Source: an uncultured bacterium (GTDB lineage: Bacteria; Eisenbacteria; RBG-16-71-46). From it: DNA of 64,000 nt. The position numbers and the translations under genes are program-made. The stretch spans positions 5,006 to 69,005 of the forward strand of contig CAZZLY010000001.1 of NCBI GenBank assembly GCA_964655175.1, given 5' to 3'. The notes under the pieces are model-generated. The model did not search any database. It saw nothing but the letters and a program-made list of their open reading frames with translations, and was not told where the DNA came from. This document shows positions 9,356 to 56,212 of the stretch, one piece after another (position 1 is the first letter of the stretch; every line of letters starts with the position of its first letter).

Positions 9356-9384
9356 ACCCGCGGCCCGCGATCGTGCCCATCCCG

Positions 9385-13809: not shown

Positions 13810-13824
13810 TCCCGGGTCGGGGTG

Positions 13825-13849
13825 CCGGGTCCCATGATTCGGGAACCGG
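13825..13849 (+). terminator. Imperfect hairpin between the C25 peptidase gene and the PorV-like gene.
   Basis: ccgggtccc-atgattc-gggaaccgg pairs at 8 of 9 positions. A small gcgtttgcgg hairpin follows. It may be a partial terminator or an RNA processing site that allows differential expression of the two genes. Confidence 0.25.
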
Positions 13850-13928
13850 GCCCGCGTTTGCGGTGTAGCACCCCTTGTCCGGTACCATGCCCGCGAGTCC
13901 CGCGGTCCCCCACATAGGAGCCAAATCC

Positions 13929-32697: not shown

Positions 32698-32850
32698 CAC
32701 AACGGGTTACGGCGGTACGCTCAAGCGTCGGGTGAGGTCTTCCCCGGCCCCTCGCGCGGTTCGCGGGGATGACCATCGGGCCGTCGGCGGGGTAGCATGC
32801 CGCGCTCGTCGTCCCGCCTTCGTTCGTCCCCGCCCGAGGAGAGCCTCGCG

Positions 32851-39058: not shown

Positions 39059-39454
39059 ATGCCCATGTCCGGACTCACCGAATCCGAGCGCCGCGGTGCG
39101 CTCGTGCTCGCCCTGCTCGTCACCCTGGGAACGCTGCAGGACCTGTGGTGGGCGCGACGAGTCGCACTCACCGACGAACCGGGGCCGGAGGTCGACACCG
39201 TGGCCGTCGTGCCCGCGGGTGAGACGGTGCCGCCCTCGGGGGATCCCGCGACCGTGGACCTCGCGACCGCCGACGTCGCGGCCCTCGACGCCCTGCCCGG
39301 CATCGGCCCGGTGCTGGCGGAGCGCATCGTCACCGAACGGCGGCGGGTGGGGGGATTCCACCGGGTGGACGACCTGCTCGCCGTGCCCGGCATCGGTCCC
39401 CGGTTGCTCGAACGCCTGCGGCCCCGGCTGCGGGTGGGCTCGGGCGGGCGCTGA
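39059..39454 (+). CDS. comEA: ComEA-like helix-hairpin-helix DNA-binding protein (competence).
   Basis: N-terminal membrane anchor RGALVLALLVTLGTL. Tandem HhH motifs LDALPGIGPVLAERIV and LLAVPGIGPRLLERL, with the typical VDLNTA-like DLATADVAALDALPGIG context. Confidence 0.6.
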   Translation: MPMSGLTESERRGALVLALLVTLGTLQDLWWARRVALTDEPGPEVDTVAVVPAGETVPPSGDPATVDLATADVAALDALPGIGPVLAERIVTERRRVGGFHRVDDLLAVPGIGPRLLERLRPRLRVGSGGR

Positions 39455-39495
39455 GCGCCCCCACGGCTCGCGCGGGACGACCGCTCGCGTCGTGC

Positions 39496-39531
39496 ATTCC
39501 GCACGGAACGGGCCCGCGGAGCGTGCGGAAT
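39496..39531 (+). promoter_or_regulatory. Perfect 10-bp inverted repeat (ATTCCGCACG / CGTGCGGAAT) with a 16-nt spacer, in the comEA-pilB intergenic region.
   Basis: Read directly as attccgcacg gaacgggcccgcggag cgtgcggaat. It lies 42 nt after the comEA stop and 180 nt before the pilB GTG. It could be an intrinsic terminator stem or a dimeric regulator operator. Confidence 0.3.
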
Positions 39532-39713
39532 TCGCTGCAGTCGGCCCGGAGGCCGTCCGATACCCACAGGGAACGAGGCCCGTTCGCTCGTCGAGCCCGC
39601 ACGGATGCGCGGCGACGATCGGGCGCGGCGTGCGCGTGCGTGCGCCGTGACGCGACAAGAAGTCCCGCTCCGAGAACGGGTTCCGCTCTCTCGCAACGCC
39701 CCCGGGGATCATC

Positions 39714-41414
<1,701 letters not shown>

Positions 41415-41439
41415 GCGGCCGCTCGAACGGAGAACGACG

Positions 41440-42522
41440 ATGGCGGAACTGACGCTGCTGCAGTTGCTCCAGGACATGGTCCAGCGCAAGGCGTCCGACC
41501 TGCACCTGACGGCCGGGGTGGCACCCGAACTGCGTATCGACGGCGCGATGACGCCGACGGAGTACGAGGTGCTGTCGCCGGATCGGTGCACGGCGCTCGC
41601 CTACAGCGTGCTCTCGGACGAGCAGCGCAAGCGTTTCGAGACGACCAAGGAGCTGGACTTCTCCTTCGGCGTCAAGAACCTCGCGCGCTTCCGCGCCAAC
41701 GTCTATCTGCAGAAGGGCTCGGTCGCGATGGCGCTGCGGCAGATCCCGTACGACATCATCCCGCTCGAGAAGCTGGGGCTGCCGCCGGTCGTGCGCGAGT
41801 TCACGAACCGTCACAAGGGCCTCGTGCTCGTGACCGGGCCCACGGGTTCGGGCAAGTCCACGACGCTCGCGTCCATGCTCGACCGCATCAACCAGACGCG
41901 GCAGTCGCACATCATGACGATCGAGGACCCGATCGAGTACATCCACCAGCACAAGAAGTCGATCGTGAACCAGCGCGAGGTGGGCGCCGACACGTCGTCG
42001 TTCCCGGCCGCGCTCAAGTACGTGCTGCGACAGGATCCCGACGTGATCCTGATCGGTGAGATGCGCGACCTCGAGACGATCGAGGCCGCCCTCACCATCG
42101 CCGAGACCGGTCACCTGGTGTTCGCGACGCTCCACACCAACTCCACGTACGAGGCGGTCAACCGCATCGTGGACGTGTTCCCCGCGGATCAGCAGAAGCA
42201 GATCCTCACCCAGCTCGCGTTCGTGCTGGAGGGCGTCATGACCCAGCAGCTCATCCCGCGCAGCCGCGGGACGGGCCGGATCATGTGCGCCGAGGTGCTG
42301 GTCTGCACGCCGGCCATCAAGGCCGTCATCCGTGAAGCCAAGACGCACCAGATCTACAGCCTCATGCAGGTCGGGCAGAAGTACGGCATGCAGACCATGA
42401 ATCAGGCACTCATGCAGGCCGTGCTCGACAAGCAGCTCACGTCCGAGGACGCCCTGGACCGCAGCACGGACCGCGTGGAGCTGGAAGGCATGCTCCAGAA
42501 GGTCCTGCGAGCGGCGGCCTGA
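41440..42522 (+). CDS. pilT: Twitching motility (retraction) ATPase.
   Basis: MAELTLLQLL...ASDLHL. Walker A LVLVTGPTGSGKSTTL. AIRNLIRE-like VIREAKTHQI motif. 360 aa. Confidence 0.9.
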   Translation: MAELTLLQLLQDMVQRKASDLHLTAGVAPELRIDGAMTPTEYEVLSPDRCTALAYSVLSDEQRKRFETTKELDFSFGVKNLARFRANVYLQKGSVAMALRQIPYDIIPLEKLGLPPVVREFTNRHKGLVLVTGPTGSGKSTTLASMLDRINQTRQSHIMTIEDPIEYIHQHKKSIVNQREVGADTSSFPAALKYVLRQDPDVILIGEMRDLETIEAALTIAETGHLVFATLHTNSTYEAVNRIVDVFPADQQKQILTQLAFVLEGVMTQQLIPRSRGTGRIMCAEVLVCTPAIKAVIREAKTHQIYSLMQVGQKYGMQTMNQALMQAVLDKQLTSEDALDRSTDRVELEGMLQKVLRAAA

Positions 42523-42538
42523 ACGGAGGACACGCACC

Positions 42539-43753
42539 ATGGCCATCTACGTGTGGAAGGGTCGTACGCTCGCGGGTGAGGCTCAGACCGGCGAGATCGA
42601 GGTGGGGCGCCAGGAGGAGGCCCTCGAGATCCTGCGCAAGAAGCGCATCCTCGTCACCTCGTTGAATCCCAAGGCGGGCGGCTTCGCGCTGCCCAAGCTG
42701 GGTGGCCCCGGCGTGTCCACGAAGGATCTCGCCATCTTCACCCGCCAGTTCGCGACCATGATCTCGGCGGGTCTGCCGCTCGTGCAGTGCCTCGACATCC
42801 TCGCCAAGCAGGCCAGCAAGCCGGGCTTCGGCAAGGTGATCGCCGAGACGACGCGCGAGGTCGAGGCCGGCTCGACGCTGTCCGACGCGTTGGGCAAGCA
42901 CCGCGCCGTGTTCGACGACCTGTTCCGCAACATGGTCGCGGCGGGTGAGGCGGGCGGTGTGCTCGACGAGATCCTCATGCGTCTGGCGACCTACATCGAG
43001 AAGGCCGACGCGCTCAAGCGCAAGGTCCAGAGCGCCATGGTGTATCCGGCCGTCGTGCTCTCGGTCGCGCTCGGCGCCACGGCGTTCATGCTCATCTTCA
43101 TCATCCCGACGTTCGCCAAGATGTTCACCGACTTCGGTGGCGAGCTGCCGCTGCCCACGAAGATCGTGCTCATCCTGTCGAACGTGCTCGTCCACTGGTG
43201 GTGGGCGGGTCTGCTCGGCATCGTCGGTGGCATCGTGGCGTTGACGCGCTACTACGCGACCGAGGACGGCCAGCGCCGCATCGACGGCATGCTCATCCGC
43301 ATGCCGGTGCTGGGCGACGTGCTCCTCAAGGGCGCCGTGGCCCGGTTCACGCGCACGCTGGGCACCCTGATCGCGTCCGGTGTGCCCATTCTGGCCGGTC
43401 TCGAGATCACCGCGCGCACGGCCGGCAACAAGGTCATCGCCGAGGCGATCATGAGCGCGCGCGCCTCGATCCGCGAGGGCGAGACGGTGTCCGCGCCGCT
43501 CAAGGCCTCGGGCGTGTTCCCGCCCATGGTCACGCAGATGATCGCGGTCGGCGAGCAGACCGGTGCGCTCGACGAGATGCTCACCAAGATCGCCGTGTTC
43601 TACGAGGCCGAGGTGGACACGGCCGTGGACACGCTCACCTCGATCATCGAGCCCGTCATGATCGTCGTCATGGGCGGCATCGTGGGCGGCATGGTCGTCG
43701 CCATGTATCTGCCGATGTTCAAGCTCATCAACGTCGTCGCGGGTGGCAACTGA
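42539..43753 (+). CDS. pilC: Type IV pilus inner-membrane platform protein (GspF family).
   Basis: Two T2SSF repeats (LATMISAGLPLVQCLDIL; LGTLIASGVPILAGLEI) and three predicted TM segments. 404 aa. Confidence 0.85.
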   Translation: MAIYVWKGRTLAGEAQTGEIEVGRQEEALEILRKKRILVTSLNPKAGGFALPKLGGPGVSTKDLAIFTRQFATMISAGLPLVQCLDILAKQASKPGFGKVIAETTREVEAGSTLSDALGKHRAVFDDLFRNMVAAGEAGGVLDEILMRLATYIEKADALKRKVQSAMVYPAVVLSVALGATAFMLIFIIPTFAKMFTDFGGELPLPTKIVLILSNVLVHWWWAGLLGIVGGIVALTRYYATEDGQRRIDGMLIRMPVLGDVLLKGAVARFTRTLGTLIASGVPILAGLEITARTAGNKVIAEAIMSARASIREGETVSAPLKASGVFPPMVTQMIAVGEQTGALDEMLTKIAVFYEAEVDTAVDTLTSIIEPVMIVVMGGIVGGMVVAMYLPMFKLINVVAGGN

Positions 43754-43754
43754 C

Positions 43755-45425
43755 ATGACCCCGACGCCCGCTCTCGGCCTCGTGAACGGCACGCCGCGCG
43801 CCTCGGACGCCTCGTCGCGTCCGAACGCGTGGCGGACGCTGCGGCCGCTGTTGCTCGGTCGGCCGCTCGTCGCGCTGGTGGCCTTGCCGGCGGGGCTGCT
43901 GCTGCGGCCGGACCTCGTGGGCCGTCCGGGGGCGTTCGCCCTGCTGGCGATCCTGACCGTCGCACTGGTCTCGTGCGGCTGGATGTGGCTCGCGCGCCGC
44001 TCGGCCGCGGTCGCACCGCAGCTCGCGGCGCAGCTCGGCGTCGACCTGCTGCTGGTGAGCGCGCTCGCCGCGCGCACGGGCGGGCAGGGCAGCCAGTACG
44101 TGTTGTTCTACGTGCTGGTGGTCATCACCGGTGGCGTGTTCGGCCGCCTCACGGGCGGCTTGCTGGCGGCGGCCGGAGCGGTCACGGGCTTCCTGTGGCT
44201 GCCGCGTCTGGCCGGTATGTTCGGGGTGACGCTGCCCAATCACGTCGAGCCCGAGGTCATGGTGACCTTCCTCGCCAGCGTCGGTGTGCTCGCCGGCGTG
44301 CTCGGCGATCGCGTGCAGCGCACCGTGGGCGAACTGGCGCGCACCGAGCGCGAGCTCGACCGCGTGCGGCTCGACAACGGCACCATCCTGCGTCATCTGG
44401 CGACCGGCATCCTCACGGTGGACGCCGACGGCTTCGTGGACGATCTGAACCCGGCCGCCGAGAACGTGCTCGGCCTCAAGGCCGACGCGGTGCGTGGCCT
44501 GCCGCTCGATCAGGCGCTGCCCTCGCGCCTGGCGGCCCTGCGCGAACTCATCCGGACGTCGCATCGCACCCGGACCGGGCGCGCCCGTGCCGAGGTCGAG
44601 GTCGCGACCGTGGCCGATCGCGTCCTGCCGCTGGGCGCGTCGACCAACGTCCTCACCCATGAGGACCAGCTCACCGGCGTCGTGGCCGTGTTCCAGGACC
44701 TGACCGCGGTCCGGGACATGGAGCGTCGGGTCCGGCGCAACGAGACCCTGGCCGAGGTCGGTGCCCTGGCGGCCGGGATCGCCCACGAACTGCGCAACGG
44801 CCTCAAGCCGATCAGCGGATCGGTGGAGGTTTTGCAACGTGAGCTCAAGTTGGAGGGTGAAACGGCCGAATTGATGGACCTAGTGGCGCGCGAATCCGCG
44901 CGACTCAACAAGTTCGTGACCGATCTCCTGACCTATTCCCGTGAGCGCGATCTGGCGCTGGAACCGGTGAGCCTCGACGCGCACCTGCGCGAGCTGGCCG
45001 GCAGCCTGCGACACGACCCGCGACGCGCACCGGGGGTGACGGTCGAGGTGGTCCCGGGGCCGGACGGCGCCCAGGTCGCGATCGACACGGAGCAGATGCG
45101 GCAGGTGTGGCTCAACCTCGCGTCCAACGCCCTCGAGGCGATGGGCGACCACGGCACCCTCACGATCACGTGGGTGGCGGTCGGGGAGAGCCAGGTGGCA
45201 GTGGAATTCCGGGACGAGGGTCCCGGCATCCCGGCCGACGATCTGCGTCGGATGGGAGAACCCTTTTTCACGACCAAACGGGGCGGGACGGGCCTGGGAC
45301 TCGCGATCGCACAGCGGATCGTCGAGCGCCATGCCGGCGTCCTGACCCTCGAGAGCGTGGCCGGTCAGGGTACGACCGCCCGGGTGCAGCTGCCCGGCGT
45401 GGCGAGCCTGACGCAGGCAGCGTGA
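43755..45425 (+). CDS. pilS: Sensor histidine kinase, PilS-like.
   Basis: Multi-TM N-terminus. PAS-like region. HisKA H-box IAHELRNGLKPI. HATPase N, G1 and G2 boxes (NLASNALEA; RDEGPGIP; GGTGLGLAI). The ATG at 43755 immediately follows the pilC stop. Confidence 0.7.
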   Translation: MTPTPALGLVNGTPRASDASSRPNAWRTLRPLLLGRPLVALVALPAGLLLRPDLVGRPGAFALLAILTVALVSCGWMWLARRSAAVAPQLAAQLGVDLLLVSALAARTGGQGSQYVLFYVLVVITGGVFGRLTGGLLAAAGAVTGFLWLPRLAGMFGVTLPNHVEPEVMVTFLASVGVLAGVLGDRVQRTVGELARTERELDRVRLDNGTILRHLATGILTVDADGFVDDLNPAAENVLGLKADAVRGLPLDQALPSRLAALRELIRTSHRTRTGRARAEVEVATVADRVLPLGASTNVLTHEDQLTGVVAVFQDLTAVRDMERRVRRNETLAEVGALAAGIAHELRNGLKPISGSVEVLQRELKLEGETAELMDLVARESARLNKFVTDLLTYSRERDLALEPVSLDAHLRELAGSLRHDPRRAPGVTVEVVPGPDGAQVAIDTEQMRQVWLNLASNALEAMGDHGTLTITWVAVGESQVAVEFRDEGPGIPADDLRRMGEPFFTTKRGGTGLGLAIAQRIVERHAGVLTLESVAGQGTTARVQLPGVASLTQAA

Positions 45426-45459
45426 TCACGAAACAACCCGTTCACAGTGAGGTGACGCC

Positions 45460-46881
45460 ATGGCGGCCGAGAAGATCCTGGTGGTCGACGACGAACAGAG
45501 CATGACCCAGTTCCTGGGCATCGTGCTGCGCAAGGAGGGCTACCAGGTCACGACCGTGAACAGTGGTCGCGATGCCCTCGAGAAGATCCGCATGGAGCCC
45601 TTCGACGTCGTGCTGTCGGACATCAAGATGCCCGGCATGGACGGCATCCAGCTGCTCCAGGGCATCAAGAAGCACGACGCGAACATCCCGGTCGTGCTCA
45701 TGACGGCCTACGCGTCGCAGCAGACCGCCATCGACGCCGTGAATCTGGGTGCGTTCCAGTACCTGCTCAAGAACGCGAAGAACGACGAGATCCGTCTCGC
45801 CGTGCGCAACGCGCTCGAGATCCGCAAGGTCAAGAACGAGAACCAGTTCCTCAAGCGCGAGCTCAAGAAGGGCCACGAGGAGAAGGTCATCATCGGTTCG
45901 TCCGACGAGATGCTCCGCGTGTTCAAGATGGTGGACAAGGTCGCGGACAGCGAGGCCACGATCCTGATCCAGGGCGATTCGGGCACCGGCAAGGAGCTCA
46001 TCGCCCGCGAGATCCACTATCGCAGCCGCCGCGCCTCGGGTCCGTTCGTGAGCATCAACTGCGGTGCGATCCCGCGTGACCTGCTCGAGTCGAACCTGTT
46101 CGGGCACGTGAAGGGCTCGTTCACCGGTGCGGTGAAGGACTCGCCCGGCCTGTTCCAGGTGGCCGAGGGCGGTACGTTCTTCCTCGACGAGGTCGGTGAG
46201 ATGCCGCTCGCCACGCAGGTCAAGCTGCTGCGGGCGCTGCAGGAGCGCGAGATCATCCCGGTCGGCGGCACCACGCCGATCAAGATCGACTGCCGTCTCG
46301 TGGCCGCGACGAACGTGGACCTCGAGCGCGAGGTCGCCGAGGGCCGCTTCCGCGCCGATCTGTTCTTCCGCCTCAACGTCATCCCGCTGCGGATGCCGGC
46401 GCTGCGCCAGCGCCGCGACGACATCCCCGTGCTCGTGGACCACTTCCTCAAGCGCCACGCCAAGGGCGGCACGCCCAAGACCGTGACCAAGGAGGCCATG
46501 GAGCTGCTCATGAAGTACGACTGGCCGGGCAACGTGCGCGAGCTCGAGAACGTCATGGAGCGCGCCATGGTGCTGGACGAGGGTGGCGTGATCCATCCCG
46601 AGGACCTGCCGGACAAGATCCGCTTCGGTCACAGCCAGAAGGGCAGCCTGGTCATCGATACGCCCACGATGACGCTCGAGGAGCTCGAGAAGGAGTACAT
46701 CCTCAAGGTGCTCAACTTCACGCGCTGGCAGAAGAAGCGCTCGAGCGAACTGCTCGGCATCAACGCCTCGACGCTGTACCGCAAGCTGATCGGCTACGGC
46801 ATCGAGAAGCCGGGCAAGGAGCGGGGCGAGGGCGCCGAGGGCGAGGACGTGGTCGCCGAGGGTGACGAGCACGCAGCCTGA
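45460..46881 (+). CDS. pilR: Sigma-54-dependent response regulator (NtrC family), PilR-like.
   Basis: REC domain (VVDDE...D...K). AAA+ sigma-54 activator domain with Walker A GDSGTGKE and the GAFTGA-equivalent GSFTGA. C-terminal HTH. Confidence 0.85.
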   Translation: MAAEKILVVDDEQSMTQFLGIVLRKEGYQVTTVNSGRDALEKIRMEPFDVVLSDIKMPGMDGIQLLQGIKKHDANIPVVLMTAYASQQTAIDAVNLGAFQYLLKNAKNDEIRLAVRNALEIRKVKNENQFLKRELKKGHEEKVIIGSSDEMLRVFKMVDKVADSEATILIQGDSGTGKELIAREIHYRSRRASGPFVSINCGAIPRDLLESNLFGHVKGSFTGAVKDSPGLFQVAEGGTFFLDEVGEMPLATQVKLLRALQEREIIPVGGTTPIKIDCRLVAATNVDLEREVAEGRFRADLFFRLNVIPLRMPALRQRRDDIPVLVDHFLKRHAKGGTPKTVTKEAMELLMKYDWPGNVRELENVMERAMVLDEGGVIHPEDLPDKIRFGHSQKGSLVIDTPTMTLEELEKEYILKVLNFTRWQKKRSSELLGINASTLYRKLIGYGIEKPGKERGEGAEGEDVVAEGDEHAA

Positions 46882-47027
46882 GACGTGCGGGTCGCACGGT
46901 CCGTGGTCGGGGTGGCTGCAAATCGCCCGGCACCACGGATCGGCGAACCCGGGATGTGACACCCCGCCCTCGGCACAAGGTCTTGCCGGACAGCGGGAAG
47001 CAGGGAAGTCAGGGCCGCGCGCCCCGA

Positions 47028-47043
47028 TGGCACGCGGATTGCG
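47028..47043 (+). promoter_or_regulatory. Sigma-54 (-24/-12) promoter upstream of pilA.
   Basis: TGGCACGCGGATTGCG equals TGGCAC-N5-TTGC, an exact match to the GG-N10-GC consensus. It lies ~73 nt upstream of the pilA ATG and directly downstream of the PilR-like sigma-54 activator gene. Confidence 0.5.
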
Positions 47044-47115
47044 GTGAATCCACCCGACCGGTATCCGACCGGCAGGTGCGCCGCGGAATCCCAATCCTCC
47101 AGGGAGGTCAGGATC

Positions 47116-47562
47116 ATGACCAAGTCGCAGAAGGGCTTCACGCTGATCGAGCTGATGATCGTGGTCGTGATCATCGGTATCCTCGCCGCCATCGCCATCC
47201 CGAACTTCATCGCCATGCAGAACCGCGCGAAGGAGGGTTCGGTGAAGGCCAACATGCACACGTTCCAGCTCGCCGCCGAGGACTACGGCGTCCAGAACGA
47301 TGGCGTGTACGCGGCCAATGCCAGCTCGGTCGAGGCGCTGCTGCCCGCCGCGGGTGTGAACTTCAAGAACCCGTTCACCAAGGTCGCCGGCACGGGTGCG
47401 GCGTGGCTCGACGTCGCCACGTACCCGACGACGGGCAACCTGTCGACGGGCTCCACGGTCGCCGGCATCGTGGCCTACTCGGACAACGCGACGACGGCCT
47501 ACCAGGTCGCCGGTCGTGGCAAGACGGCGGATCTCGCGCTGGTGCTCACCAGCGGTCAGTGA
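47116..47562 (+). CDS. pilA: Type IVa major pilin, copy 1.
   Basis: Class III signal MTKSQKG/FTLIELMIVVVIIGILAAIAIP, with Gly-1, Phe+1 and Glu+5. RBS AGGGAGG. 148 aa. No cysteine anywhere in the protein. Confidence 0.85.
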   Translation: MTKSQKGFTLIELMIVVVIIGILAAIAIPNFIAMQNRAKEGSVKANMHTFQLAAEDYGVQNDGVYAANASSVEALLPAAGVNFKNPFTKVAGTGAAWLDVATYPTTGNLSTGSTVAGIVAYSDNATTAYQVAGRGKTADLALVLTSGQ

Positions 47563-47580
47563 TCCCACGCGGTCGTGGGA
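47563..47580 (+). terminator. Perfect 7-bp stem / 4-nt loop hairpin immediately after the pilA stop.
   Basis: tcccacg-cggt-cgtggga begins at the first base after the TGA. It may act as an attenuator or partial terminator between the two pilin genes. No U-tract follows, as is usual in high-GC genomes. Confidence 0.35.
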
Positions 47581-47853
47581 TGTGGGCGGGCCCGCTGGGC
47601 TCGCTCCCGTCCCGCGGCCGATGCGGGCGGACGACGCCCGCGACGGAGGGGCGGCGCGGTGGATCGGGTGACCGGTCGCCGCACTCGAGCCTCCGGCAGT
47701 CCAGCCGATACTCGACGTCGGGGCGGTTCTGCGGAGTCCACGCCCCGGGCCCTGCTCGCGAGCGAGGGTGATGACGGGACCGCAGCCAACCGGGCTCTCG
47801 TGGGTCCATCCGGACCTGCGCCATCCATAGCCTACCTGCGAGGGAGTGCGAAC

Positions 47854-48300
47854 ATGTCACGCAATCAGAAGGGCTTCACGCTGATCGAGCTCATGATCGT
47901 GGTCGTCATCATCGGCATCCTGGCCGCCATCGCGATCCCGAACTTCATCGCCATGCAGAACCGTGCGAAGGAAGGCTCGGTCAAGTCGAACATGCACACC
48001 TTCCAGCTGGCGGCCGAGGATTACGGCGTCCAGAACGACGGTGTGTACGCGGCGACGGCCGGTGCGGTCGAGGCCCTGCTGCCGAACGCCGGGGCGAACT
48101 TCAAGAACCCGTTCGACAAGACGACGGGTTCGGGTGCGGCGTGGCTCGACGTGGCCACGTACCCGACGACGGGCAATCTGGCGACCGGTTCCACGATCGC
48201 CGGTATCGTCGCCTACTCGGACAACGCGACGACGGCCTACCAGGTCGCCGGCCGCGGCAAGACGGCGGATCTGTCGCTGGTGCTCTCGAGCGGCCAGTAG
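47854..48300 (+). CDS. Type IVa pilin, copy 2 (divergent tandem paralog).
   Basis: MSRNQKG/FTLIELMIVVVIIGILAAIAIP. It is ~90% amino-acid identical to copy 1, but carries many synonymous codon differences. RBS GAGGGAG. 148 aa, cysteine-free. Confidence 0.85.
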   Translation: MSRNQKGFTLIELMIVVVIIGILAAIAIPNFIAMQNRAKEGSVKSNMHTFQLAAEDYGVQNDGVYAATAGAVEALLPNAGANFKNPFDKTTGSGAAWLDVATYPTTGNLATGSTIAGIVAYSDNATTAYQVAGRGKTADLSLVLSSGQ

Positions 48301-48323
48301 TCTCGATCCCGCAGGTTCCGGAC

Positions 48324-48360
48324 GGGGGTGCGCCTCGAGCGCACCCCCGTTCTGTTTCAC
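48324..48360 (+). terminator. Rho-independent terminator after the second pilin gene.
   Basis: gggggtgcg-cctcgag-cgcaccccc forms a 9-bp GC-rich stem, followed by gttctgtttcac (T-rich). Confidence 0.55.
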
Positions 48361-48483
48361 CCCTCGGGAGCGACTCGCGGCACGGGGGTTGCAAAACCTC
48401 TCGACGCCAGCGGTGCAGCCTCGCCGCAGCGGTGCAGCCAAGCGGTTGCCCGCCAACACGTTCGCCTCGGGAGACCACCTCGA

Positions 48484-49533
48484 ATGTCGATGCTGGGACA
48501 GGGTACGACGGCCAAGCCGGAGCCGCAGCGGACGGGGACTGACCGCCCGACCGTGCAGAACGCAACCCCTGCAGCCGGGGCGGCGGTCTCGGTCCGCGGC
48601 CTCACCAAGAGCTACCGCCACCCCTGGACGATGCAGGTGACCCCGGGCCTGACCGACGTGACGTTCGACGTCCGGCCGGGCGAGGTGTTCGGCTACCTGG
48701 GCCCCAACGGCGCCGGCAAGACGACCACGATCAAGCTGCTCGCCGGATTGCTCAAGCCCACGAGCGGGCAGGCGTGGTTGTTCGGTACGTCCATCGATCG
48801 CGTCGAGAGCCGCCGTCGGCTGGGTTTCCTGCCGGAGCAGCCGTACTTCTACGACTCGCTCACCGGCGTCGAGTACCTCGAGTTCGTGGCGCGTCTCTCG
48901 GGTCTGTCGGGGCGTGACGCCGCCGCCGCCGCGCGCCGTTGGTTCGGCAAGGTGGGCCTGGGGGAGCGCGCGCGTCTGGCGCTGCGCAAGTACTCCAAGG
49001 GCATGCTGCAGCGCCTCGGGCTCGCGGCCGCCATGGTGCACGAGCCCGACCTGCTCATCCTCGACGAGCCCATGAGCGGTCTCGATCCGTTCGGCCGTCG
49101 CGACGTGCGCGACCTGATCCTGGAGCAGCGCGAGCGCGGCGCCACGGTCATGCTGTCGAGCCACATCCTGCCCGACGTCGAGGCGCTGTGCGATCGCGTC
49201 GGCATCGTGCTGCGCGGACGGCTCACGCGCGTGGCGAGCGTGGGTGAGCTCATCGAGGGCGGCACGCCGCGCATCGAACTGCGCGTCGCGGGTCAGCCGC
49301 TGCTCGCGATCCCGGTGACGCTCGCCGACGTGATCGAGCGCTCGACGCACGCGGGCGACACCGTGTTCACGCTGCACGACCCGACGCGGCAGCAGGAGGT
49401 GCTCGCGTGGCTCGTGCAGCAGCGCGCCACCGTGCAGTCCATGACGCCGGTGCGCGGCACGCTCGAGGACCTGTTCATGGCCACGGCCGAGAGCGCCGCG
49501 TTCCATGGCAACGTCGCGCGGAGGTCGGCGTGA
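48484..49533 (+). CDS. ABC transporter ATP-binding protein, ABC-2 subfamily, in the position of M. xanthus PilH.
   Basis: Walker [11 protein letters not shown]-loop. ABC signature [15 protein letters not shown]. Walker B LLILDEP. H-loop SSHIL. Confidence 0.75.
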
Positions 49534-50291
49534 TCGCGCTCATCGCCCGGAACACCTTCCGCGAGGCGGTCCGCGACCGCGTGCTCGCGGGCATCGTCGT
49601 CGCCGGCCTCGCGCTGCTCGCGCTCACGCGGCTCGCCAGCCCGCTCGCCATGGGCGAGGGGCTGCGGCTCACCGTGGACCTGGGGCTGTCGGGCATCACC
49701 TGGCTCGGGCTTGTCGTCGTGCTCATGGTGGGTTCGAGTCTCGTGTCCAAGGAGATCGACCGTCGCACCATCTTCAACCTGCTGTCGCGCCCGCTGCCGC
49801 GGCCCTATTACCTCGTGGGCAAGTGGGCCGGTCTGACGGCGGCGCTCGCGTCGGTCGCGGTGATCCTGGGCCTCGCGCTCGCGGGCATGCTCGTGCTGCT
49901 CGGGCACGCCGAGGCGCTGCCCGCCATCGCGCAGGCGGTCGTGCTCGCGATGCTCGAACTCGCGGTCGTGTGCTCGATCGCGGTCATGTTCTCGGCGCTC
50001 TCGACGCCGGTGCTGTCGGCGCTCTACACGCTCGGGCTGTTCCTGGCGGGACAGTGGACCGACGACCTGCGCCGCTTCGCCGAGCACGCGCCGGGCTCGC
50101 TCGGCACGCTGCTCACGACGGCCGCGAACCTGCTGCCCAACCTGTCGCTGTTCAACATGCGCTCGCTCGCCTCGCTCGGCACCTGCACGACGGTCGAGCA
50201 CCTCGCGGTCGCGACGGGCTATGCCGCGCTCTACTGCGGTTGCGTGCTGCTGCTGGGTGCGGCCGCGTTCGAATCGCGGGACTTCAAGTGA
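49530..50291 (+). CDS. ABC-2 type transporter permease, in the position of M. xanthus PilI.
   Basis: Six predicted TM helices and no soluble domain. The GTG start overlaps the stop of the ATPase gene (GTGA). Confidence 0.6.
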   Translation: MIALIARNTFREAVRDRVLAGIVVAGLALLALTRLASPLAMGEGLRLTVDLGLSGITWLGLVVVLMVGSSLVSKEIDRRTIFNLLSRPLPRPYYLVGKWAGLTAALASVAVILGLALAGMLVLLGHAEALPAIAQAVVLAMLELAVVCSIAVMFSALSTPVLSALYTLGLFLAGQWTDDLRRFAEHAPGSLGTLLTTAANLLPNLSLFNMRSLASLGTCTTVEHLAVATGYAALYCGCVLLLGAAAFESRDFK

Positions 50292-51046
50292 GCACGCTCG
50301 CGCTCACGATCCCGCCGCTGCGTCAGCGGATGATCGCCCAGTGGGCGGGTGCCCTCGTGTGCGCCACGCTCATGGCGATGACCGCGTCGTGGGCCGCGCG
50401 GCATCTGCCGCAGCGTCCGGCGTTCGAGGAGCTCGCGTACTACCCGTCGGGCCAGGCGCTGCGTCCCGCCACGTTCGGTCACGCCGAGTCGGCGGCCGAC
50501 CTGGCGTGGCTGCGTGCGGTGCAGTACTACGGCGAGCACCGTCAGACCGATCTGCGGTTCGTGAAGATGGAGCACGTGTTCGACGTGCTCACCTCGCTCG
50601 CGCCGCGGTTCGAGAGCCCGTACGTGTTCGGCGCGTTCGCGCTGGCGCAGGAGGGGCACGACTTCCCGGCCGCCGAGCGCCTCATGCTGAAGGGCCTCGC
50701 CGCCAATCCGCGCAGCGGCCGGCTCGCGTTCGAGATGGGCTTCCTCTACTACGTCCGTCCCGGGGGGCGCGACCTCGCGCACGCGGCGGAGTGGTTCGAG
50801 CGCGCCTCGCATCTGCCCGGCGCCCCGGCCAACGCCGCGCGCTTCGCCGCGTTCACGCGCCAGCACGGCGGCGACCTGATCGTCGCGCTGCAACTCTGGA
50901 AGCAGATCCACGCCACCACGGGCAATCGCTACCTGCGGGACATCGCCGAACGGGAGGCCGAGCGGATCCAGGCCGCGTTGGCCGCCGGGCGTCGGGAACG
51001 GGCGATGACCCGGCTCTCGACCCCGATCGTCCGCACGAAGCCCTGA
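50288..51046 (+). CDS. Hypothetical helical (TPR-like) protein coupled to the ABC transporter. It is a possible PilG-like accessory.
   Basis: N-terminal hydrophobic segment IAQWAGALVCATLMAMTASWAA, then helical repeats (LMLKGLAANPRSGRLAFEMGFLYY). GTGA overlap with the permease. Assigned by context only. Confidence 0.35.
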   Translation: MSTLALTIPPLRQRMIAQWAGALVCATLMAMTASWAARHLPQRPAFEELAYYPSGQALRPATFGHAESAADLAWLRAVQYYGEHRQTDLRFVKMEHVFDVLTSLAPRFESPYVFGAFALAQEGHDFPAAERLMLKGLAANPRSGRLAFEMGFLYYVRPGGRDLAHAAEWFERASHLPGAPANAARFAAFTRQHGGDLIVALQLWKQIHATTGNRYLRDIAEREAERIQAALAAGRRERAMTRLSTPIVRTKP

Positions 51047-51241
51047 CGAACGGTGGGTGGGATGACCCAACGCGTTGGAAACCGCCCTTCAGTTCGGTCG
51101 CCACGGTGCCGACACTCACCGTGAAGGCGGGACCCCGCACGGACGCACCCTCGGGCTCCGTCGGGTGATGGATGACGAGGACCCTGCCGTCGCACGCACG
51201 ACGATGGGGACGACCCGCACCACCTGGTGAGGAGTACACAC

Positions 51242-52297
51242 ATGTTCTTCGGGAAGCAGCCGTCGCTCGTGGGCCTCGACATCGGCAGCCACAGCGTCAA
51301 GGTGGTGGAGCTGCAGGCGTTGCCGAACAAGACCTTCAAGCTGGTCAATTACGGCATCTCGCAGCCGTTGTCCGAAGCGATCGTGGACGGCGAGATCATG
51401 GATCGCCAGCTCGTCACGGACGCCATCGCGAACCTGCTCGAGTCGCGGGGCATCAAGGCCAAGACGGTCGTCGCCGCCGTGTCCGGCCGCGCGGTCATCG
51501 TGAAGAAGATCACGATGAACAAGCTGTCGGCCGAGGACGCGAAGCAGGCGATCGTGTGGGAGGCCGAGCAGCACGTCCCGTACGACATCAACGACGTCTC
51601 GCTCGACTTCGAGATCCTGGGCCAGGCGCCCAACGACCCGCAGCAGATGCAGGTCCTGCTCGTCGCCGCCAAGAAGGACATGGTGCTGTCGTTCAGCGAC
51701 CTCATCCGTGAGGCCGGGCTGCAGCCCACCGTCGTGGACGTGGATTCGTTCGCGGCGCAGAACGCGATCGAAGCCAACGTCGATCTGGGCCCCGATCAGG
51801 TCGTCGCCATCCTCAACGTGGGTGGCGAGATGACGAACATCAACATCGTGCAGGGCGGCGTGCCGTACTTCACGAAGGACCTGCAGATCGGCGGCGACAC
51901 GTTCGTCGAGGCGGTCCAGCGTCGCTTCAATCTGAGCCAGGCCGAGGCCGCCGCCGCCGTGCGCGGTGAGGCCGGCGCCGGACTCGAGGTGGGCCCGGTC
52001 ATCGAACAGGCCGCCGAGGGCATCGCCACCGCGCTCGACCGCGCGCAGGCCTACCTGCGCACCGCGGGCGAGGCGGGCACGCTCAATCGCATCCTGCTGT
52101 GCGGCGGCAGCGCGCTGACGCCGGGGCTCGCCGACTTCCTGGCGCGCCGCTTCCAGGTCACGGCCGAGGTCGTGAACCCGCTCGCGCGCATCGCCTACGA
52201 CCCGGCGCTGTTCGCCGGGCAGGACGTGATGAAGGTGGCGCCCCTTCTCACGGTCGGCATCGGTCTGGCCCTGCGCCGCCCGGGGGACAAGCGATGA
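51242..52297 (+). CDS. pilM: Type IV pilus assembly protein PilM (actin-like ATPase fold).
   Basis: LVGLDIGSHSVKVVEL ... ILLCGGSALTPGLADFLARRF is an FtsA/actin-like fold. 351 aa. Confidence 0.85.
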   Translation: MFFGKQPSLVGLDIGSHSVKVVELQALPNKTFKLVNYGISQPLSEAIVDGEIMDRQLVTDAIANLLESRGIKAKTVVAAVSGRAVIVKKITMNKLSAEDAKQAIVWEAEQHVPYDINDVSLDFEILGQAPNDPQQMQVLLVAAKKDMVLSFSDLIREAGLQPTVVDVDSFAAQNAIEANVDLGPDQVVAILNVGGEMTNINIVQGGVPYFTKDLQIGGDTFVEAVQRRFNLSQAEAAAAVRGEAGAGLEVGPVIEQAAEGIATALDRAQAYLRTAGEAGTLNRILLCGGSALTPGLADFLARRFQVTAEVVNPLARIAYDPALFAGQDVMKVAPLLTVGIGLALRRPGDKR

Positions 52298-52872
52298 TCC
52301 GCGTCAATCTGCTGCCGCGCGAGGACAAGTCGCCGCGAGGCGGTCACGCCCTGAAGGTCAACGTCAAGGTCGGCGACCTCGTGTTGCCGATGGTCGTGCT
52401 CGGTGCCGCGGTCGTCGTGATCGCCGGTGCCGCGCTGTCGCAGCACTCGCGCGGCCAGGCGCTCGATCGCTCGATCCGGCAGGTGGACGCCGAGTCGCGC
52501 GCGCTCGCGCCGCAGATCGCGCGCGTGAACCAGTTGGCGCAGGAGCGCGCCGAGCTGGATCTGCGCATGGGCATCATCACCAAGTTGGAACGCGGTCGCA
52601 CCGAGGGTGTCCGGCTCATGGATGAGTTGGCGCGGTGCGTTCCGGACCACCTCTGGCTGACGGGGGTCTCCCAGGATGGGAGCAACCACCTGCAGGTGGA
52701 GGGGGTCACCTATTCGAACCTCGTCGTCTCCGACTTCATGTCGCGCATCGAACGCGCCGACCTGTTCTCGAACGTCGAGCTCTCGTTCGCCGAGCGCGGT
52801 GTGGTGAACGAGAAGAACGTCGTGAAGTTCCAGGTCAGCTGCACGGTGAGCCCCGAATCGGGCGCGAACTAG
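52294..52872 (+). CDS. pilN: Type IV pilus assembly protein PilN.
   Basis: MIRVNLLPRE start with a single TM and a periplasmic coiled coil. ATGA overlap with pilM. Confidence 0.75.
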   Translation: MIRVNLLPREDKSPRGGHALKVNVKVGDLVLPMVVLGAAVVVIAGAALSQHSRGQALDRSIRQVDAESRALAPQIARVNQLAQERAELDLRMGIITKLERGRTEGVRLMDELARCVPDHLWLTGVSQDGSNHLQVEGVTYSNLVVSDFMSRIERADLFSNVELSFAERGVVNEKNVVKFQVSCTVSPESGAN

Positions 52873-52888
52873 GAGAGGACCCGCCATC

Positions 52889-53521
52889 ATGCCCAACCTC
52901 GATCTGAAGAGTCCGGCGGCCCAGCGGTTCGTGCTCACGTTGCTCCTCGCGGGCGGCGCGGTCGGTCTGTACTTCGGCTCGCGTCTCACGCCGTGGACGT
53001 TCCCGAGCACGCAGGACCGTCTCGCCGAGACGCAGGCGCAGTACGAGAAGAAGTCGGCCGAGCTGGCGCGCGCGCGCGCGTCGGTCGCCGACCTGCCCCG
53101 CTTCGAGGCCGAGTACCAGCAGCTGCACCAGCGCTGGGAGCTCGCCTCCGAGCTGCTGCCGACCGATCGCCAGCTGCCGACCCTGCTGCGGCGCATCACG
53201 CTCGCGGGTCAGCAGACGGGCGTCACGTTCAAGGTGTTCCGTCCGGCCGGCGTGAAGCCGTCCGACTACCACACCGAGATGCCGATCAACGTCGCGGTCT
53301 CCGGCGACTATCACGCGGTGGGGTCGTTCCTCGCCGAGCTCGCCAACATGCGACGCATCGTGACGGTCTCGAACCTCAAGCTCGCGACCAACACGCGCAC
53401 CGAGGACGGCGGCACGACGCTCGCCGAGTTCACCGCCTCGGCCTACAGCCTCAACACCGCGCCGGCCACCACGCCGGGGGCGGCCACCACGAAGGGGGGC
53501 GCCAATGCCCGGAAGATCTGA
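52889..53521 (+). CDS. pilO: Type IV pilus assembly protein PilO.
   Basis: Single TM (FVLTLLLAGGAVGLYF). Coiled coil. C-terminal PilO core (PINVAVSGDYHAVGSFLAELANMRRIVTVSNLKL). Confidence 0.7.
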   Translation: MPNLDLKSPAAQRFVLTLLLAGGAVGLYFGSRLTPWTFPSTQDRLAETQAQYEKKSAELARARASVADLPRFEAEYQQLHQRWELASELLPTDRQLPTLLRRITLAGQQTGVTFKVFRPAGVKPSDYHTEMPINVAVSGDYHAVGSFLAELANMRRIVTVSNLKLATNTRTEDGGTTLAEFTASAYSLNTAPATTPGAATTKGGANARKI

Positions 53522-54227
53522 CGCCGTGGCCGGTCCGCTCCAGGCCCTGCGCGACCCGCGGACGCAGCGGATCGTCGGTCTCGTCGCACTCGTGCTGACC
53601 ACCGCGGCGCTCGGCGCCTGGCGCATGGGTTGGCTGGGTGGCACCGGCACGAGCGAGGAGACCGTCGTCGTGCAGACGCCGCCGCGCAAGGCCCGTCCGC
53701 ACCGTGTCGTGCCGCTCGCGGTGGCCCCGAAGGCGGACACGACGACCCCGTCGGCGCCCGTCGTCATGGGTCCGGAACCCGCGCCCAAGCCCGCCACGCG
53801 ACTCGCCTCGAGCACCGGGGTGGACGCGGCCGTGATCACGCTGGTGCCCGTGCAGGCGCCCGTCGTGCCGCCGCCGACGCCGCAGGTCGAGGAGCACGTC
53901 ACGTATCAGTACAACGCCATCGGTCGCCGCGACCCGTTCGTCTCGCTGGTCGGCGGGACGTTCGTCGGTGCCGACGTCGGTGGCGATGCGCCGCCCGATC
54001 CGGGTGGCATCAAGGTCGTGGGCATCGTCTGGGGCGCGACCGACCAGTTCGCGATGGTCGAGGACGTCCGTGGCAACAGCTACGTGCTCCGCAAGGGTGA
54101 TGCGCTGCAGAACGGCGTCGTCGACGAACTCCGTCGCGATGCCATCGTGGTCAGCATCAAGACCGATGGCCAGAGCCAGCAGGTCGTGATTCCGTTCACG
54201 CGGAAGGGAGACGGCAATGATCGCTAA
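53505..54227 (+). CDS. pilP: Type IV pilus assembly protein PilP-like.
   Basis: N-terminal anchor. Pro/Ala-rich linker. C-terminal beta domain (YVLRKGDALQNGVVDELRRDAIVV). Assigned mainly by position between pilO and pilQ. Confidence 0.5.
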   Translation: MPGRSDAVAGPLQALRDPRTQRIVGLVALVLTTAALGAWRMGWLGGTGTSEETVVVQTPPRKARPHRVVPLAVAPKADTTTPSAPVVMGPEPAPKPATRLASSTGVDAAVITLVPVQAPVVPPPTPQVEEHVTYQYNAIGRRDPFVSLVGGTFVGADVGGDAPPDPGGIKVVGIVWGATDQFAMVEDVRGNSYVLRKGDALQNGVVDELRRDAIVVSIKTDGQSQQVVIPFTRKGDGNDR

Positions 54228-55584
54228 GAAGATGGGTCTCGGCATCCTGATCGTGACGTTCCTCATGAGCGTCGCGGCGGTTCCCGTCGTGGCCCAGTCG
54301 TCGGCGGGCAGCACGGTGGGCCTGGTCAAGACGGGCACCGGCAGCTTCAGCCTCGACGTGGACGGTGCGGATCTTCGCACCGTGCTGCGGGCGATCTCGG
54401 AGTTCAGCGGTCGCAACATCGTGCTCGGCACGACCGCCAAGGGCACGGTCCGTCTCACCGTGAAGAACGTCGCGTGGCAGGACGCGCTCAAGGCGGTCCT
54501 GCGTGCGAACGGCCTCGATTACGTCGAGGACGGCGCCATCATCCGCGTGGACGATGCCGCCAAGCTCAACGCGGAGAAGGTGGACCGCGAGACGGCCAAC
54601 GCGCGCACGCTCGAACTCGTGCCGCTCGAGACGCGCATCGTGAAGCTGAGCTATGCGAACGCCTCGGAGCTCACGACGCCGCTCGGCGCCACGCTCTCCA
54701 AGCGCGGCACGATCCAGGTCGAGAAGCGCACGAACTCGCTCATCGTGACCGATCTGCCGTCGAACCTCGACGCGATCACGCAGATGGCGAACCAGCTCGA
54801 TTCCGAGACGCCGCAGATCAAGATCGAGGCGAAGCTGGTGGACCTCGACGAGGGCGACGTGACCGCGCTGGGCGTCGAATGGACGCACGGCATCGGCCAG
54901 TCGCAGTTCGTCTCGGACGGCGCCGGCGCCCCGATCCAGCTGCGCCCGGCCGTGAGCCCGCACGGCAGCGTGACCATGGGCTCGCAGGTCTCGACCGGCA
55001 TCGCCGGTCCGGCCGCCCGCGTGAACTTCGGTGTCTTCCGTCGTTGGGGTGACCTCGAGGCGTCGCTGCAGGCGCTCGCCAGCCAGAACAAGGCCGAGAT
55101 CATCTCGAACCCGGTCATCACGACGGTGGACAACCGTGAAGCGAAGATCGTCGTGGGCCAGAAGATCCCGCTCATCGTGCAGGACGTGGCCGGTAATCCG
55201 GTCTCGCAGCTGCAGACGGTCGGCATCCAGCTGCGCGTGACGCCGCACCTGACGTCCGAGAAGAAGATCGTGCTCGACCTGCATCCCGAGGTCAGCGATC
55301 TCGCGTCGGGCTCCACGGTGCAGGGTGGTCTCATCATCAACACGTCTGAAGCCGACACGCGCGTGATGGTCGAGGACGGCGAGATCGCCGTCATCGGTGG
55401 CCTCAAGCGCAAGAACACGACCTCGGTCAACCGTGGTGTGCCGGTGCTGCGCAGCATCCCGCTGCTGGGCATGCTGTTCAGCTCGAACACCGACACGCAC
55501 GCCGAGCGCAGCCTCGTGATCTTCGTGAAGCCGACGCTGGTCACGTCGTTGGCGGCCGACGCCTCCGAGACGCCCAGCAAGTAA
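54217..55584 (+). CDS. pilQ: Type IV pilus secretin.
   Basis: Signal peptide. N0/N1 domains (DLRTVLRAISEFSGRNIVL). Secretin core (VIGGL...VPVLRSIPLLGMLFS...ERSLVIFVKPTLV). Only 455 aa, with no AMIN domains. Confidence 0.8.
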   Translation: MIAKKMGLGILIVTFLMSVAAVPVVAQSSAGSTVGLVKTGTGSFSLDVDGADLRTVLRAISEFSGRNIVLGTTAKGTVRLTVKNVAWQDALKAVLRANGLDYVEDGAIIRVDDAAKLNAEKVDRETANARTLELVPLETRIVKLSYANASELTTPLGATLSKRGTIQVEKRTNSLIVTDLPSNLDAITQMANQLDSETPQIKIEAKLVDLDEGDVTALGVEWTHGIGQSQFVSDGAGAPIQLRPAVSPHGSVTMGSQVSTGIAGPAARVNFGVFRRWGDLEASLQALASQNKAEIISNPVITTVDNREAKIVVGQKIPLIVQDVAGNPVSQLQTVGIQLRVTPHLTSEKKIVLDLHPEVSDLASGSTVQGGLIINTSEADTRVMVEDGEIAVIGGLKRKNTTSVNRGVPVLRSIPLLGMLFSSNTDTHAERSLVIFVKPTLVTSLAADASETPSK

Positions 55585-55604
55585 GCGCCTCGAGTCGAAC
55601 CTGC

Positions 55605-55640
55605 GACGCCGCCGGGTCCCGCACCCGGCGGCGTCGCTTT
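55605..55640 (+). terminator. Rho-independent terminator downstream of pilQ.
   Basis: gacgccgccgggt-cccgc-acccggcggcgtc forms a perfect 13-bp stem, followed by gcttt. Confidence 0.6.
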
Positions 55641-55672
55641 GCGTCGTCCCCCGGAGCGGCTAGGCTGCGCGC

Positions 55673-56212
55673 ATGATCACGAACCTCGTCCGTCCCGTCG
55701 CACTCATCGGGCTCATGGGCGCCGGCAAGAGCGCGGTCGCGCGCGTACTCGGCGAACGTCTGGGCGTCTCGGTGGCCGACCTCGACGGTATGATCGAGGC
55801 CATCGAGGGCTGCTCGGTGGCCGAGCTGTTCGAACGCGCCGGCGAGGCCTGGTTCCGACGTCGCGAGAGCGAACTGCTGGCGGAGGCGCTGCGGTCCGGC
55901 GTGCGCGTGGTCGCCTGTGGCGGTGGCGTGGTGCTGGACCCCGCGCAGCGCGCGCTCCTGCGCGAACGCTGTCACGTCGTCTGGCTCGAGGTCGCGCCCG
56001 AGGAGGCCGCCCGCCGGGTGACGGCCCAGCACGCCGACCCCGCGCGGGTGCGTCCGCTCTTGGCGGGTGAGGCCCCGGAGTCCCGGCTGCGGACGCTGCT
56101 CGAGGCCCGTGCACCTCTTTATGAGGAGGCGGCGCACCAGCGCGTCACCACGCAGGGGCGCACCCCCGAGCAGGTCGCCGACGCGGTGATCGCCGGGTTG
56201 CCGCGTTCATGA
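55673..56212 (+). CDS. aroK: Shikimate kinase.
   Basis: Walker A LIGLMGAGKS. Overall AroK similarity. 179 aa. It lies downstream of pilQ, as in many proteobacteria. Confidence 0.85.
   Translation: MITNLVRPVALIGLMGAGKSAVARVLGERLGVSVADLDGMIEAIEGCSVAELFERAGEAWFRRRESELLAEALRSGVRVVACGGGVVLDPAQRALLRERCHVVWLEVAPEEAARRVTAQHADPARVRPLLAGEAPESRLRTLLEARAPLYEEAAHQRVTTQGRTPEQVADAVIAGLPRS

Follow-up and report, generated by a model that had tools for sequence, protein, structure and literature searches.

We analysed a 64,000-nucleotide stretch (hereafter the window) of a Candidatus Eisenbacteria genome (assembly GCA_964655175.1, contig CAZZLY010000001.1), in which 16 co-directional genes occupy positions 39059-55584 of the + strand. 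These genes very probably form a type IVa pilus (T4aP) locus of the Myxococcus/Desulfuromonadales-type supercluster, in what we propose to be a working and ancestral layout. The T4aP parts PilB, PilT, PilC, PilMNOP, PilQ and the major pilin are all present, and between the pilin genes and pilM lies an ATP-binding cassette (ABC) module of three genes resembling Myxococcus pilH, pilI and pilG. The locus is of a known kind, in a new phylum.

The window is ~70% GC and raw lists of open reading frames (ORFs) are therefore noisy; genes were called by third-position GC (GC3) in each frame, together with Pfam and NCBIfam scans. GC3 by frame revealed an unbroken run of + strand genes at 39059-57012. 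An initial annotation of this DNA had listed the pil genes in the same order, and its list, order and coordinates agree with GC3 and with the family scans; it had ended the cluster at 55640, 56 bases past the pilQ stop codon. It had also called the cluster complete, which was an overstatement, as it contains no pilD, minor pilins/PilY1, pilotin or TsaP. The genes of the run are as follows (aa, amino acids).

39059..39454, + strand: comEA-like gene, 131 aa, N-terminal hydrophobic segment and helix-hairpin-helix (Pfam HHH_3, E 3.7e-17)
39714..41414, + strand: pilB, extension ATPase (T2SSE and MshEN; TIGR02538, 738.6 bits, cutoff 675.65)
41440..42522, + strand: pilT, retraction ATPase (TIGR01420, 496.5 bits, cutoff 319.1)
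42539..43753, + strand: pilC, platform protein (two T2SSF repeats, E 3.8e-70)
43743..45425, + strand: pilS, sensor histidine kinase (PAS, HisKA, HATPase_c)
45460..46881, + strand: pilR, sigma-54-dependent response regulator (Response_reg, Sigma54_activat, HTH_8)
47116..47562, + strand: pilA1, major pilin, 148 aa, leader MTKSQKG|FTLIE (N_methyl, E 9.6e-11)
47854..48300, + strand: pilA2, tandem paralogue of pilA1 and 89% identical to it (N_methyl)
48484..49533, + strand: PilH-like ABC ATPase, 349 aa (ABC_tran and a weak DrrA1-3_C match)
49530..50291, + strand: PilI-like ABC-2 permease, 253 aa (ABC2_membrane_2), GTGA overlap with the ATPase stop codon
50288..51046, + strand: PilG-like accessory protein, 252 aa, N-terminal membrane helix and TPR-like domain, GTGA overlap with the permease stop codon
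51227..52297, + strand: pilM (PilM_2, E 2.9e-69; 39% identical to Myxococcus PilM)
52294..52872, + strand: pilN (Pfam PilN, E 1.6e-19)
52889..53521, + strand: pilO (Pfam PilO, E 3.8e-30)
53505..54227, + strand: pilP, 240 aa, without a Pfam match, position kept in related loci
54217..55584, + strand: pilQ, short secretin, 455 aa (N0/STN, one Secretin_N and Secretin in Pfam)
55673..56212, + strand: aroK, shikimate kinase (Pfam SKI, E 2.4e-42)
56209..57012, + strand: lipoprotein-like gene, lipobox ALGAC, without a Pfam or NCBIfam match

The pil locus and its PilH-PilI-PilG module

Myxococcus loci were reached through an M. xanthus PilA query, the mature 208 residues of which are identical to PDB 8tj2, and the loci of Myxococcus sp. 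AB036A (L086) and Corallococcus macrosporus (L087), fetched around their PilA proteins, served as references. These read pilS-R-A-G-H-I-D-S2-R2-M-N-O-P-Q, with ribF and pilB-T-C also present upstream in the longer Corallococcus locus. Comparison with them upheld the colinearity with the M. xanthus pil locus that had been claimed at the outset, PilGHI-type ABC module included: as in Myxococcus and the Cystobacterineae, pilBTC, pilSR, pilA, the ABC module and pilMNOPQ follow one another on one strand, with the gene for a PilR-type sigma-54 activator before pilA. Unlike Myxococcus, the window has the ABC genes in the order H-I-G rather than G-H-I, carries two tandem copies of pilA, lacks pilD, pilS2 and pilR2, and is bordered by comEA upstream and aroK downstream, whereas ribF lies upstream in Myxococcus-type loci. 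The PilG-like protein is also shorter (252 aa, without the C-terminal extension, against 303 aa), as is PilQ (455 aa without AMIN domains, against ~900 aa with them).

The position of aroK directly after pilMNOPQ is shared with Pseudomonas and E. coli (pilMNOPQ-aroK and hofMNOPQ-aroK), and this pairing is classic in Proteobacteria; those organisms, however, do not have pilBCD, pilA and pilSR linked to pilMNOPQ, and they lack a PilGHI module. The T4aP clusters of Desulfuromonadales (Geobacter-type) and of the Bdellovibrio type have a Cystobacterineae-like arrangement that includes pilGHI homologues (PMC6060248). By this literature description they are like the window locus, although they belong to other phyla and have ribF linked to pilB.

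Between core Pil proteins of the window and those of Myxococcus or Corallococcus, identity is 28-60%, an ordinary range for a comparison of phyla. PilB, PilT and PilC share 52%, 60% and 49% identity with those of Corallococcus, PilS shares 31% over 469 aa with Myxococcus PilS (E 8e-46), PilR is 43-45% identical to Myxococcus PilR and PilR2, and PilP matches Myxococcus PilP at 31% over 108 aa (E 1.5e-8). Both pilins carry the class III signal peptide KG|FTLIE, and the N-terminal 62 aa of pilA1 are 52% identical to Myxococcus PilA. The secretin scores just over the TIGR02515 cutoff (288.7 bits against 284.35), and a Pfam scan found no AMIN domains in it.

BLASTP aligned the ATPase with Myxococcus PilH at 42% identity over 306 aa (E 6e-77) and the 252-aa accessory protein with PilG at 25% over 193 aa (E 3e-10), while the permease is 33% identical to PilI over 257 aa, which is full length (E 4e-27; both match ABC2_membrane_2). 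A profile of the Eisenbacteria accessory proteins aligned with PilG at an hhalign probability of 95.3%. A family hidden Markov model (HMM) built without Myxococcus sequences found Myxococcus PilG with E 1.7e-41 in a library of 1.8 billion proteins, and this match spans the full length of PilG, C-terminal extension included. On the strength of these matches, all three proteins of the ABC module are homologous to PilH, PilI and PilG, in keeping with the kinship to PilH and PilI first proposed for this DNA. The ATPase, permease and accessory genes overlap by 4 bases each, which suggests translational coupling. Among solved bacterial structures, the best relative of the ATPase is NosF (E 1.9e-45), and a profile of the permease family matches NosY weakly, over its full length (E 0.019); the NCBIfam families closest to the ATPase are DrrA and GldA, whose cutoffs it does not reach.

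Wu et al. (1998) is said to be the original PilGHI paper, in which the three proteins were reportedly required for Myxococcus pili. To our knowledge, PilGHI have long been regarded as Myxococcus-specific. Work in M. xanthus has shown that PilGHI are needed for pili and that their loss resembles loss of the pilin (PMC3724824, PMC5544727).

Promoters, gene order and pilD across the phylum

Related loci were collected by a scan with an alignment of the 252-aa PilG-like protein, at one genome per species, which gave 198 relatives; the best 80 were kept, nearly all of them labelled Candidatus Eisenbacteria, and the window proteins were placed on them by tblastn. We refer to L001-L062 as the main clade and to L063-L080, in which the PilG-like protein is 41-54% identical to that of the window, as the deep clade. 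Where the contig suffices, main-clade loci read pilB-T-C-S-R-pilA(1-4)-H-I-G-M-N-O-P-Q-aroK-lipoprotein, tandem pilA copies numbering one to four in related species. The deep clade keeps the same pilB-T-C-S-R-A-H-I-G block as the window, and pilMNOPQ does not follow it in most cases. Downstream of pilQ, aroK is found in most related loci, and the lipoprotein-like gene after it has homologues 25-65% identical in the same place; upstream of pilB, a comEA match was also seen in L046, the sole locus with a long enough flank. Since the same gene order is found in dozens of species-level loci, it is not a product of chance. Judged from these comparisons, the layout is ancestral in the phylum and has been inherited across it rather than recently acquired, and either an ancient transfer or ancestral synteny may lie behind what it shares with Myxococcus.

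Nine of the contigs carry the labels of non-Eisenbacteria taxa (L030, L033, L036, L040, L048, L054, L058, L063 and L066; the labels are Phycisphaerales, Limnocylindria, Methylomirabilota, Verrucomicrobiia, Myxococcaceae, Thermoanaerobaculaceae, Udaeobacter, Hyphomicrobiales and Acidobacteriota). Their PilG-like proteins are 50-71% identical to that of the window and their synteny is of the Eisenbacteria type where the sequence suffices, and the odd labels are probably errors in the binning or labelling of metagenome-assembled genomes (MAGs).

Around the pilin genes, four elements were recognised by consensus matching and folding.

47028..47042, + strand: sigma-54 -24/-12 element TGGCACGCGGATTGC, exact consensus, 74 bases upstream of the pilA1 ATG
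47570..47620, + strand: strong RNA hairpin after pilA1 (folding)
48320..48361, + strand: terminator-like GC hairpin followed by GUUCUGUUUC, after pilA2 (folding)
48378..48392, + strand: second sigma-54-like element CGGCACGGGGGTTGC, one mismatch to the consensus, upstream of the ABC ATPase gene

TGGCAC-N5-TTGC occurs exactly twice in the window, once at 47028-47042. The other copy (2302-2316, - strand) lies just upstream of a minus-strand ORF of 180 aa (1757-2296) without a Pfam match. Of 59 related loci, 37 have an element equivalent to that of pilA1 before the first pilA seen, among them nearly every locus that also contains pilR. The ATPase gene is preceded by the pattern [TC]GGCA[CT]-N5-[TC]TGC in 58 of 66 loci; for the slightly looser pattern used in the search, the background was at most 0.063 per 320 bases. 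The stretch 47555-47640 (86 nt), which holds the pilA1 hairpin and a smaller second one, folds at -59.5 kcal/mol (z = -4.31 against shuffles), and 48296-48370 (75 nt), with the pilA2 hairpin, at -39.8 kcal/mol (z = -4.29). A simple terminator scan reported no terminator, the pilA2 hairpin included. The ABC module is placed directly downstream of pilA, and pilin and module appear to be co-regulated through these predicted, duplicated promoters. In M. xanthus, by contrast, pilA-G-H-I form a single operon (PMC3546991); in the window, the hairpin after pilA2 is followed by a separate, predicted sigma-54-like promoter for the ABC genes.

The initial annotation had pointed out that no pilD accompanies the locus, and this holds for the whole window: Peptidase_A24 was not found in Pfam scans of its large ORFs, the G.GD.K motif occurs in none of its six frames, and tblastn with three PilD proteins gave no match in it. 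Nor did any of the main-clade loci examined have a pilD match within 10 kb, and between the ABC module and pilM of the window there is no pilD, pilS2 or pilR2. In the deep-clade loci, however, a Myxococcus PilD probe placed pilD immediately after the PilG-like gene (L063-L080), and two of them, L069 and L075, read PilG-like-pilD-pilM-N-O-P-Q. The space between the PilG-like gene and pilM is ~1.1 kb in these two and holds pilD, against 166-410 bases in 59 main-clade loci and ~180 in the window. Because the deep clade keeps pilD after the ABC module while the main-clade gap is short, we read the absence of pilD as a clade-specific relocation or loss from an ancestral, Myxococcus-like position. 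The G|FTLIE leader is kept in the pilins of both clades, implying that a prepilin peptidase is still in use.

After pilD, the deep clade mostly continues with pilin-like genes, not pilMNOPQ. Extra pilin-like genes were seen there in L064, L065, L071, L072 and L074, the first with its own sigma-54 -24/-12 element; L071 and L072 have more of them, whose leaders (SSGFTLVEMM, for example) are minor-pilin-like. This arrangement suggests that the deep clade has a putative sigma-54-driven pilin operon where the clade of the window has pilMNOPQ.

The PilG family and the wider window

The 252-aa PilG-like protein matched nothing in the copies of Pfam and NCBIfam searched. It has 1296 relatives in a large protein collection, of which the closest named (60-73% identity) all come from Candidatus Eisenbacteria MAGs, and a profile search of 1.84 billion cluster representatives returned 3133 clusters at 50% identity with E <= 0.001, 1132 of them with E <= 1e-10. 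Common to the family are an N-terminal membrane helix, a Y-x-P-S-G motif and an A-D-x-x-W-L-R-A-I-Q-Y-Y-G motif. The AlphaFold2 model of the accessory protein (pLDDT 82.6) is all-helical and TPR-like. Foldseek against the PDB returned only generic TPR proteins, with PilW (2vq2) on top at E 0.016; we do not take this as a sign of kinship with the PilW/PilF pilotins, and the protein has no lipobox.

Many family members, Myxococcus PilG included, bear a C-terminal extension with a P-x-D-P-x-G-G-x-Y motif (among them P0133, P0150, P0187 and L086:3749-4660), which is reminiscent of the globular domain of the GspG pseudopilin; one member, P0288, has a weak T2SSG match (E 0.0057). A precomputed PF26697 match is on record for some members and was not returned by our Pfam scan.

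In the other lineages examined, ATPase, permease and PilG-like protein are kept together in that order, the exceptions being ones of form: L088 has a fused permease-PilG, and in L090 the ATPase is cut at the contig end. H-I-G is the common order among the loci seen, and the G-H-I of Myxococcus the exception. Two proteins, P0299 (L088:8001-9740) and P0311, are ABC-2 permeases fused to a PilG-like domain, which argues for physical association of the two and for a periplasmic TPR domain. In L081 the trio adjoins genes for pilins, PilM/PilN, PilO, a secretin, a T2SSE ATPase and an A24 peptidase; in L083 it directly precedes pilD; in L085 it comes after ribF-pilR-pilA, and in L090 these genes lie downstream of it. 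The PilGHI module, PilG family included, is far more widespread than the literature implies.

Several genes lie between the pil locus and the window start. Directly upstream of comEA-pilB, 37156-39000 encodes a 614-aa protein with a signal peptide and a C-terminal ...WPFFN, for which Pfam and NCBIfam scans gave no match; it is possibly an outer-membrane beta-barrel. Further upstream is a TPR protein (34426-36246), rejected as a candidate pilotin for want of a signal peptide, and a histidine-utilisation operon (28161-34383) with hutH (aromatic amino acid lyase), a hutI-like amidohydrolase, a formiminotransferase-cyclodeaminase and a urocanase-like ORF (29729-31120), the last judged from its translation only. 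At 9037-14879 lie genes for type IX secretion cargo and shuttle: a C25 (gingipain-type) peptidase of 1590 aa, which ends in a FlgD_ig-type domain, and after it a PorV homologue. FG-GAP/M6 and other large surface proteins are encoded nearby. The affiliation first given for this DNA, to a lineage of the Fibrobacteres-Chlorobi-Bacteroidetes (FCB) type, is plausible because the closest named relatives are Candidatus Eisenbacteria and because the window holds these PorV and C25 genes. NCBI taxonomy names the phylum Candidatus Eiseniibacteriota, among candidate phyla.

Proposed function and alternatives

We propose that PilS/PilR and sigma-54 would drive pilA from the -24/-12 promoter at 47028, and that the second sigma-54-type promoter, at 48378, would drive a translationally coupled pilH-pilI-pilG, with pilin and ABC module co-regulated. 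The G|FTLIE prepilins would be cut by a PilD presumably encoded outside the window. As in the established T4aP scheme, PilB and PilC would polymerise the pilin on a PilMNOP scaffold, the pilus would exit via the PilQ secretin, and PilT would retract it. The ABC module would comprise a PilH ATPase dimer, the six-helix ABC-2 permease PilI and a single-pass PilG with a periplasmic TPR-like domain, and by homology with M. xanthus PilGHI it may support pilin handling or pilus assembly. NosDFY resembles this module in composition, with a periplasmic accessory protein beside the ATPase and a six-helix ABC-2 permease, and the complex drives a periplasmic partner instead of exporting a substrate. The accessory proteins, however, are unrelated: NosD is a beta-helix, whereas the PilG family has a TPR-like domain on a membrane anchor. 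By this analogy, ATP hydrolysis in the Eisenbacteria module may be coupled to a periplasmic partner, in place of plain export, and we favour, with moderate confidence, an ATP-driven, periplasmic role of the module in handling pilin or in pilus assembly.

Several points weigh against this interpretation. Support for it in this organism comes from sequence, and a need for PilGHI in piliation is known only from M. xanthus (PMC3724824, PMC5544727). The accessory protein is a distant pairwise match to PilG, the Eisenbacteria PilG-like proteins are without the C-terminal extension of Myxococcus PilG, and the NosY match of the permease is weak. Both sigma-54 promoters are sequence predictions. No pilD was located within the window, and that the system functions is inferred. 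Finally, the trio has no pilus genes nearby in L084, L088 and L089 and is not exclusively pilus-dedicated.

Recent horizontal acquisition from Myxococcota or another "deltaproteobacterial" donor, which the initial annotation had offered beside synteny conservation, would account for a gene order so close to that of Myxococcus and for a total GC slightly lower in the locus (0.66-0.71) than in its flanks (0.72-0.75). That difference, however, arises from the low second-position GC, that is, the amino-acid composition, of conserved proteins; when locus and flanks were compared at the third position, GC3 proved host-typical, the pil genes (0.88-0.94) being as high as or higher than the flanking genes (0.84-0.92). 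The layout recurs in the Eisenbacteria loci retrieved, in deep and shallow clades alike, and the flanks differ from those of Myxococcus, with comEA instead of ribF upstream and aroK downstream. Eight trios compared were roughly equidistant from each other, that of the window being about as far from Myxococcus (42/33/25%) as from other lineages (ATPase 37-46%, permease 31-35%, accessory protein 25-40%), and its accessory protein is closest to that of L081, an unrelated MAG (40%). Conservation of synteny therefore stands, and a recent transfer is very improbable. We give even less credence to a cluster decaying or non-functional through loss of its prepilin peptidase. Such decay would fit the failure to find pilD in the 64-kb window or within 10 kb of any main-clade locus examined, but all genes are intact and show strong codon bias, the pilin leader is conserved in both clades, and many bacteria have a pilD that is not linked to their pil clusters (PMC6060248).

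Two further alternatives concern what the ABC module, and the pilus itself, might do. The transporter could be a generic ABC-2 exporter of polysaccharide, lipid or peptide that is a bystander in the pil cluster, as the trios without pilus neighbours in L084, L088 and L089 and the proximity of the ATPase to DrrA/GldA would suggest; xapD (GSU1501), an ATPase gene near pilA in Geobacter, was also reportedly first linked to exopolysaccharide, which we count on the same side. This is nonetheless unlikely, given that across the phylum the module always sits between pilA and either pilM or pilD, that it has its own conserved sigma-54 element, like pilA, and that at least three other lineages also have it beside pilus genes. 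All three proteins are, moreover, homologous to the genetically required PilGHI of M. xanthus (PMC3724824), and in a mutant of xapD, a candidate pilH homologue, PilA was not detectable (bioRxiv 10.1101/114900). Whether the pilus serves mainly DNA uptake (competence) rather than motility is a closer question. The initial annotation had described an S-motility locus, and this cannot be concluded from the genes, since a neighbouring comEA and a short, AMIN-free PilQ suit DNA uptake equally. The comEA-like gene lies immediately upstream of pilB, and the HofQ DNA-uptake porin models score PilQ at 198 bits, below cutoff. On the other side, PilT, PilS/PilR and several major pilin paralogues suit surface motility or adhesion just as well, comEC and dprA were not seen in Pfam scans of the large ORFs of the window, and the two uses are not exclusive; a pilus used mainly for DNA uptake is a serious possibility, although not one we favour.

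Taken together, the locus is best read as a T4aP system in which the PilGHI-type module takes part, and the missing pilD as a lineage-specific rearrangement rather than a functional puzzle. The name of the PilG family can replace "hypothetical protein" for the gene at this position. More speculatively, the trio could be an ancient and widespread system, an overlooked general assembly factor of type IV pili beyond "Deltaproteobacteria" that acts on pilins as an ATP-driven periplasmic mechanotransducer and not as an exporter; were this tentative idea true, the Eisenbacteria trio would be its streamlined version, with its own sigma-54 promoter and with a PilG-like protein that lacks the C-terminal extension. 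For work on the mechanism, comparison can draw on a minimal PilG, on PilI and PilG fused in nature and on residues that are invariant. Because the trio is embedded in the pil locus across an unrelated phylum, has its own predicted sigma-54 promoter and has pilin or pilD neighbours elsewhere, the PilGHI module is a candidate general accessory of the pilus, not a curiosity.

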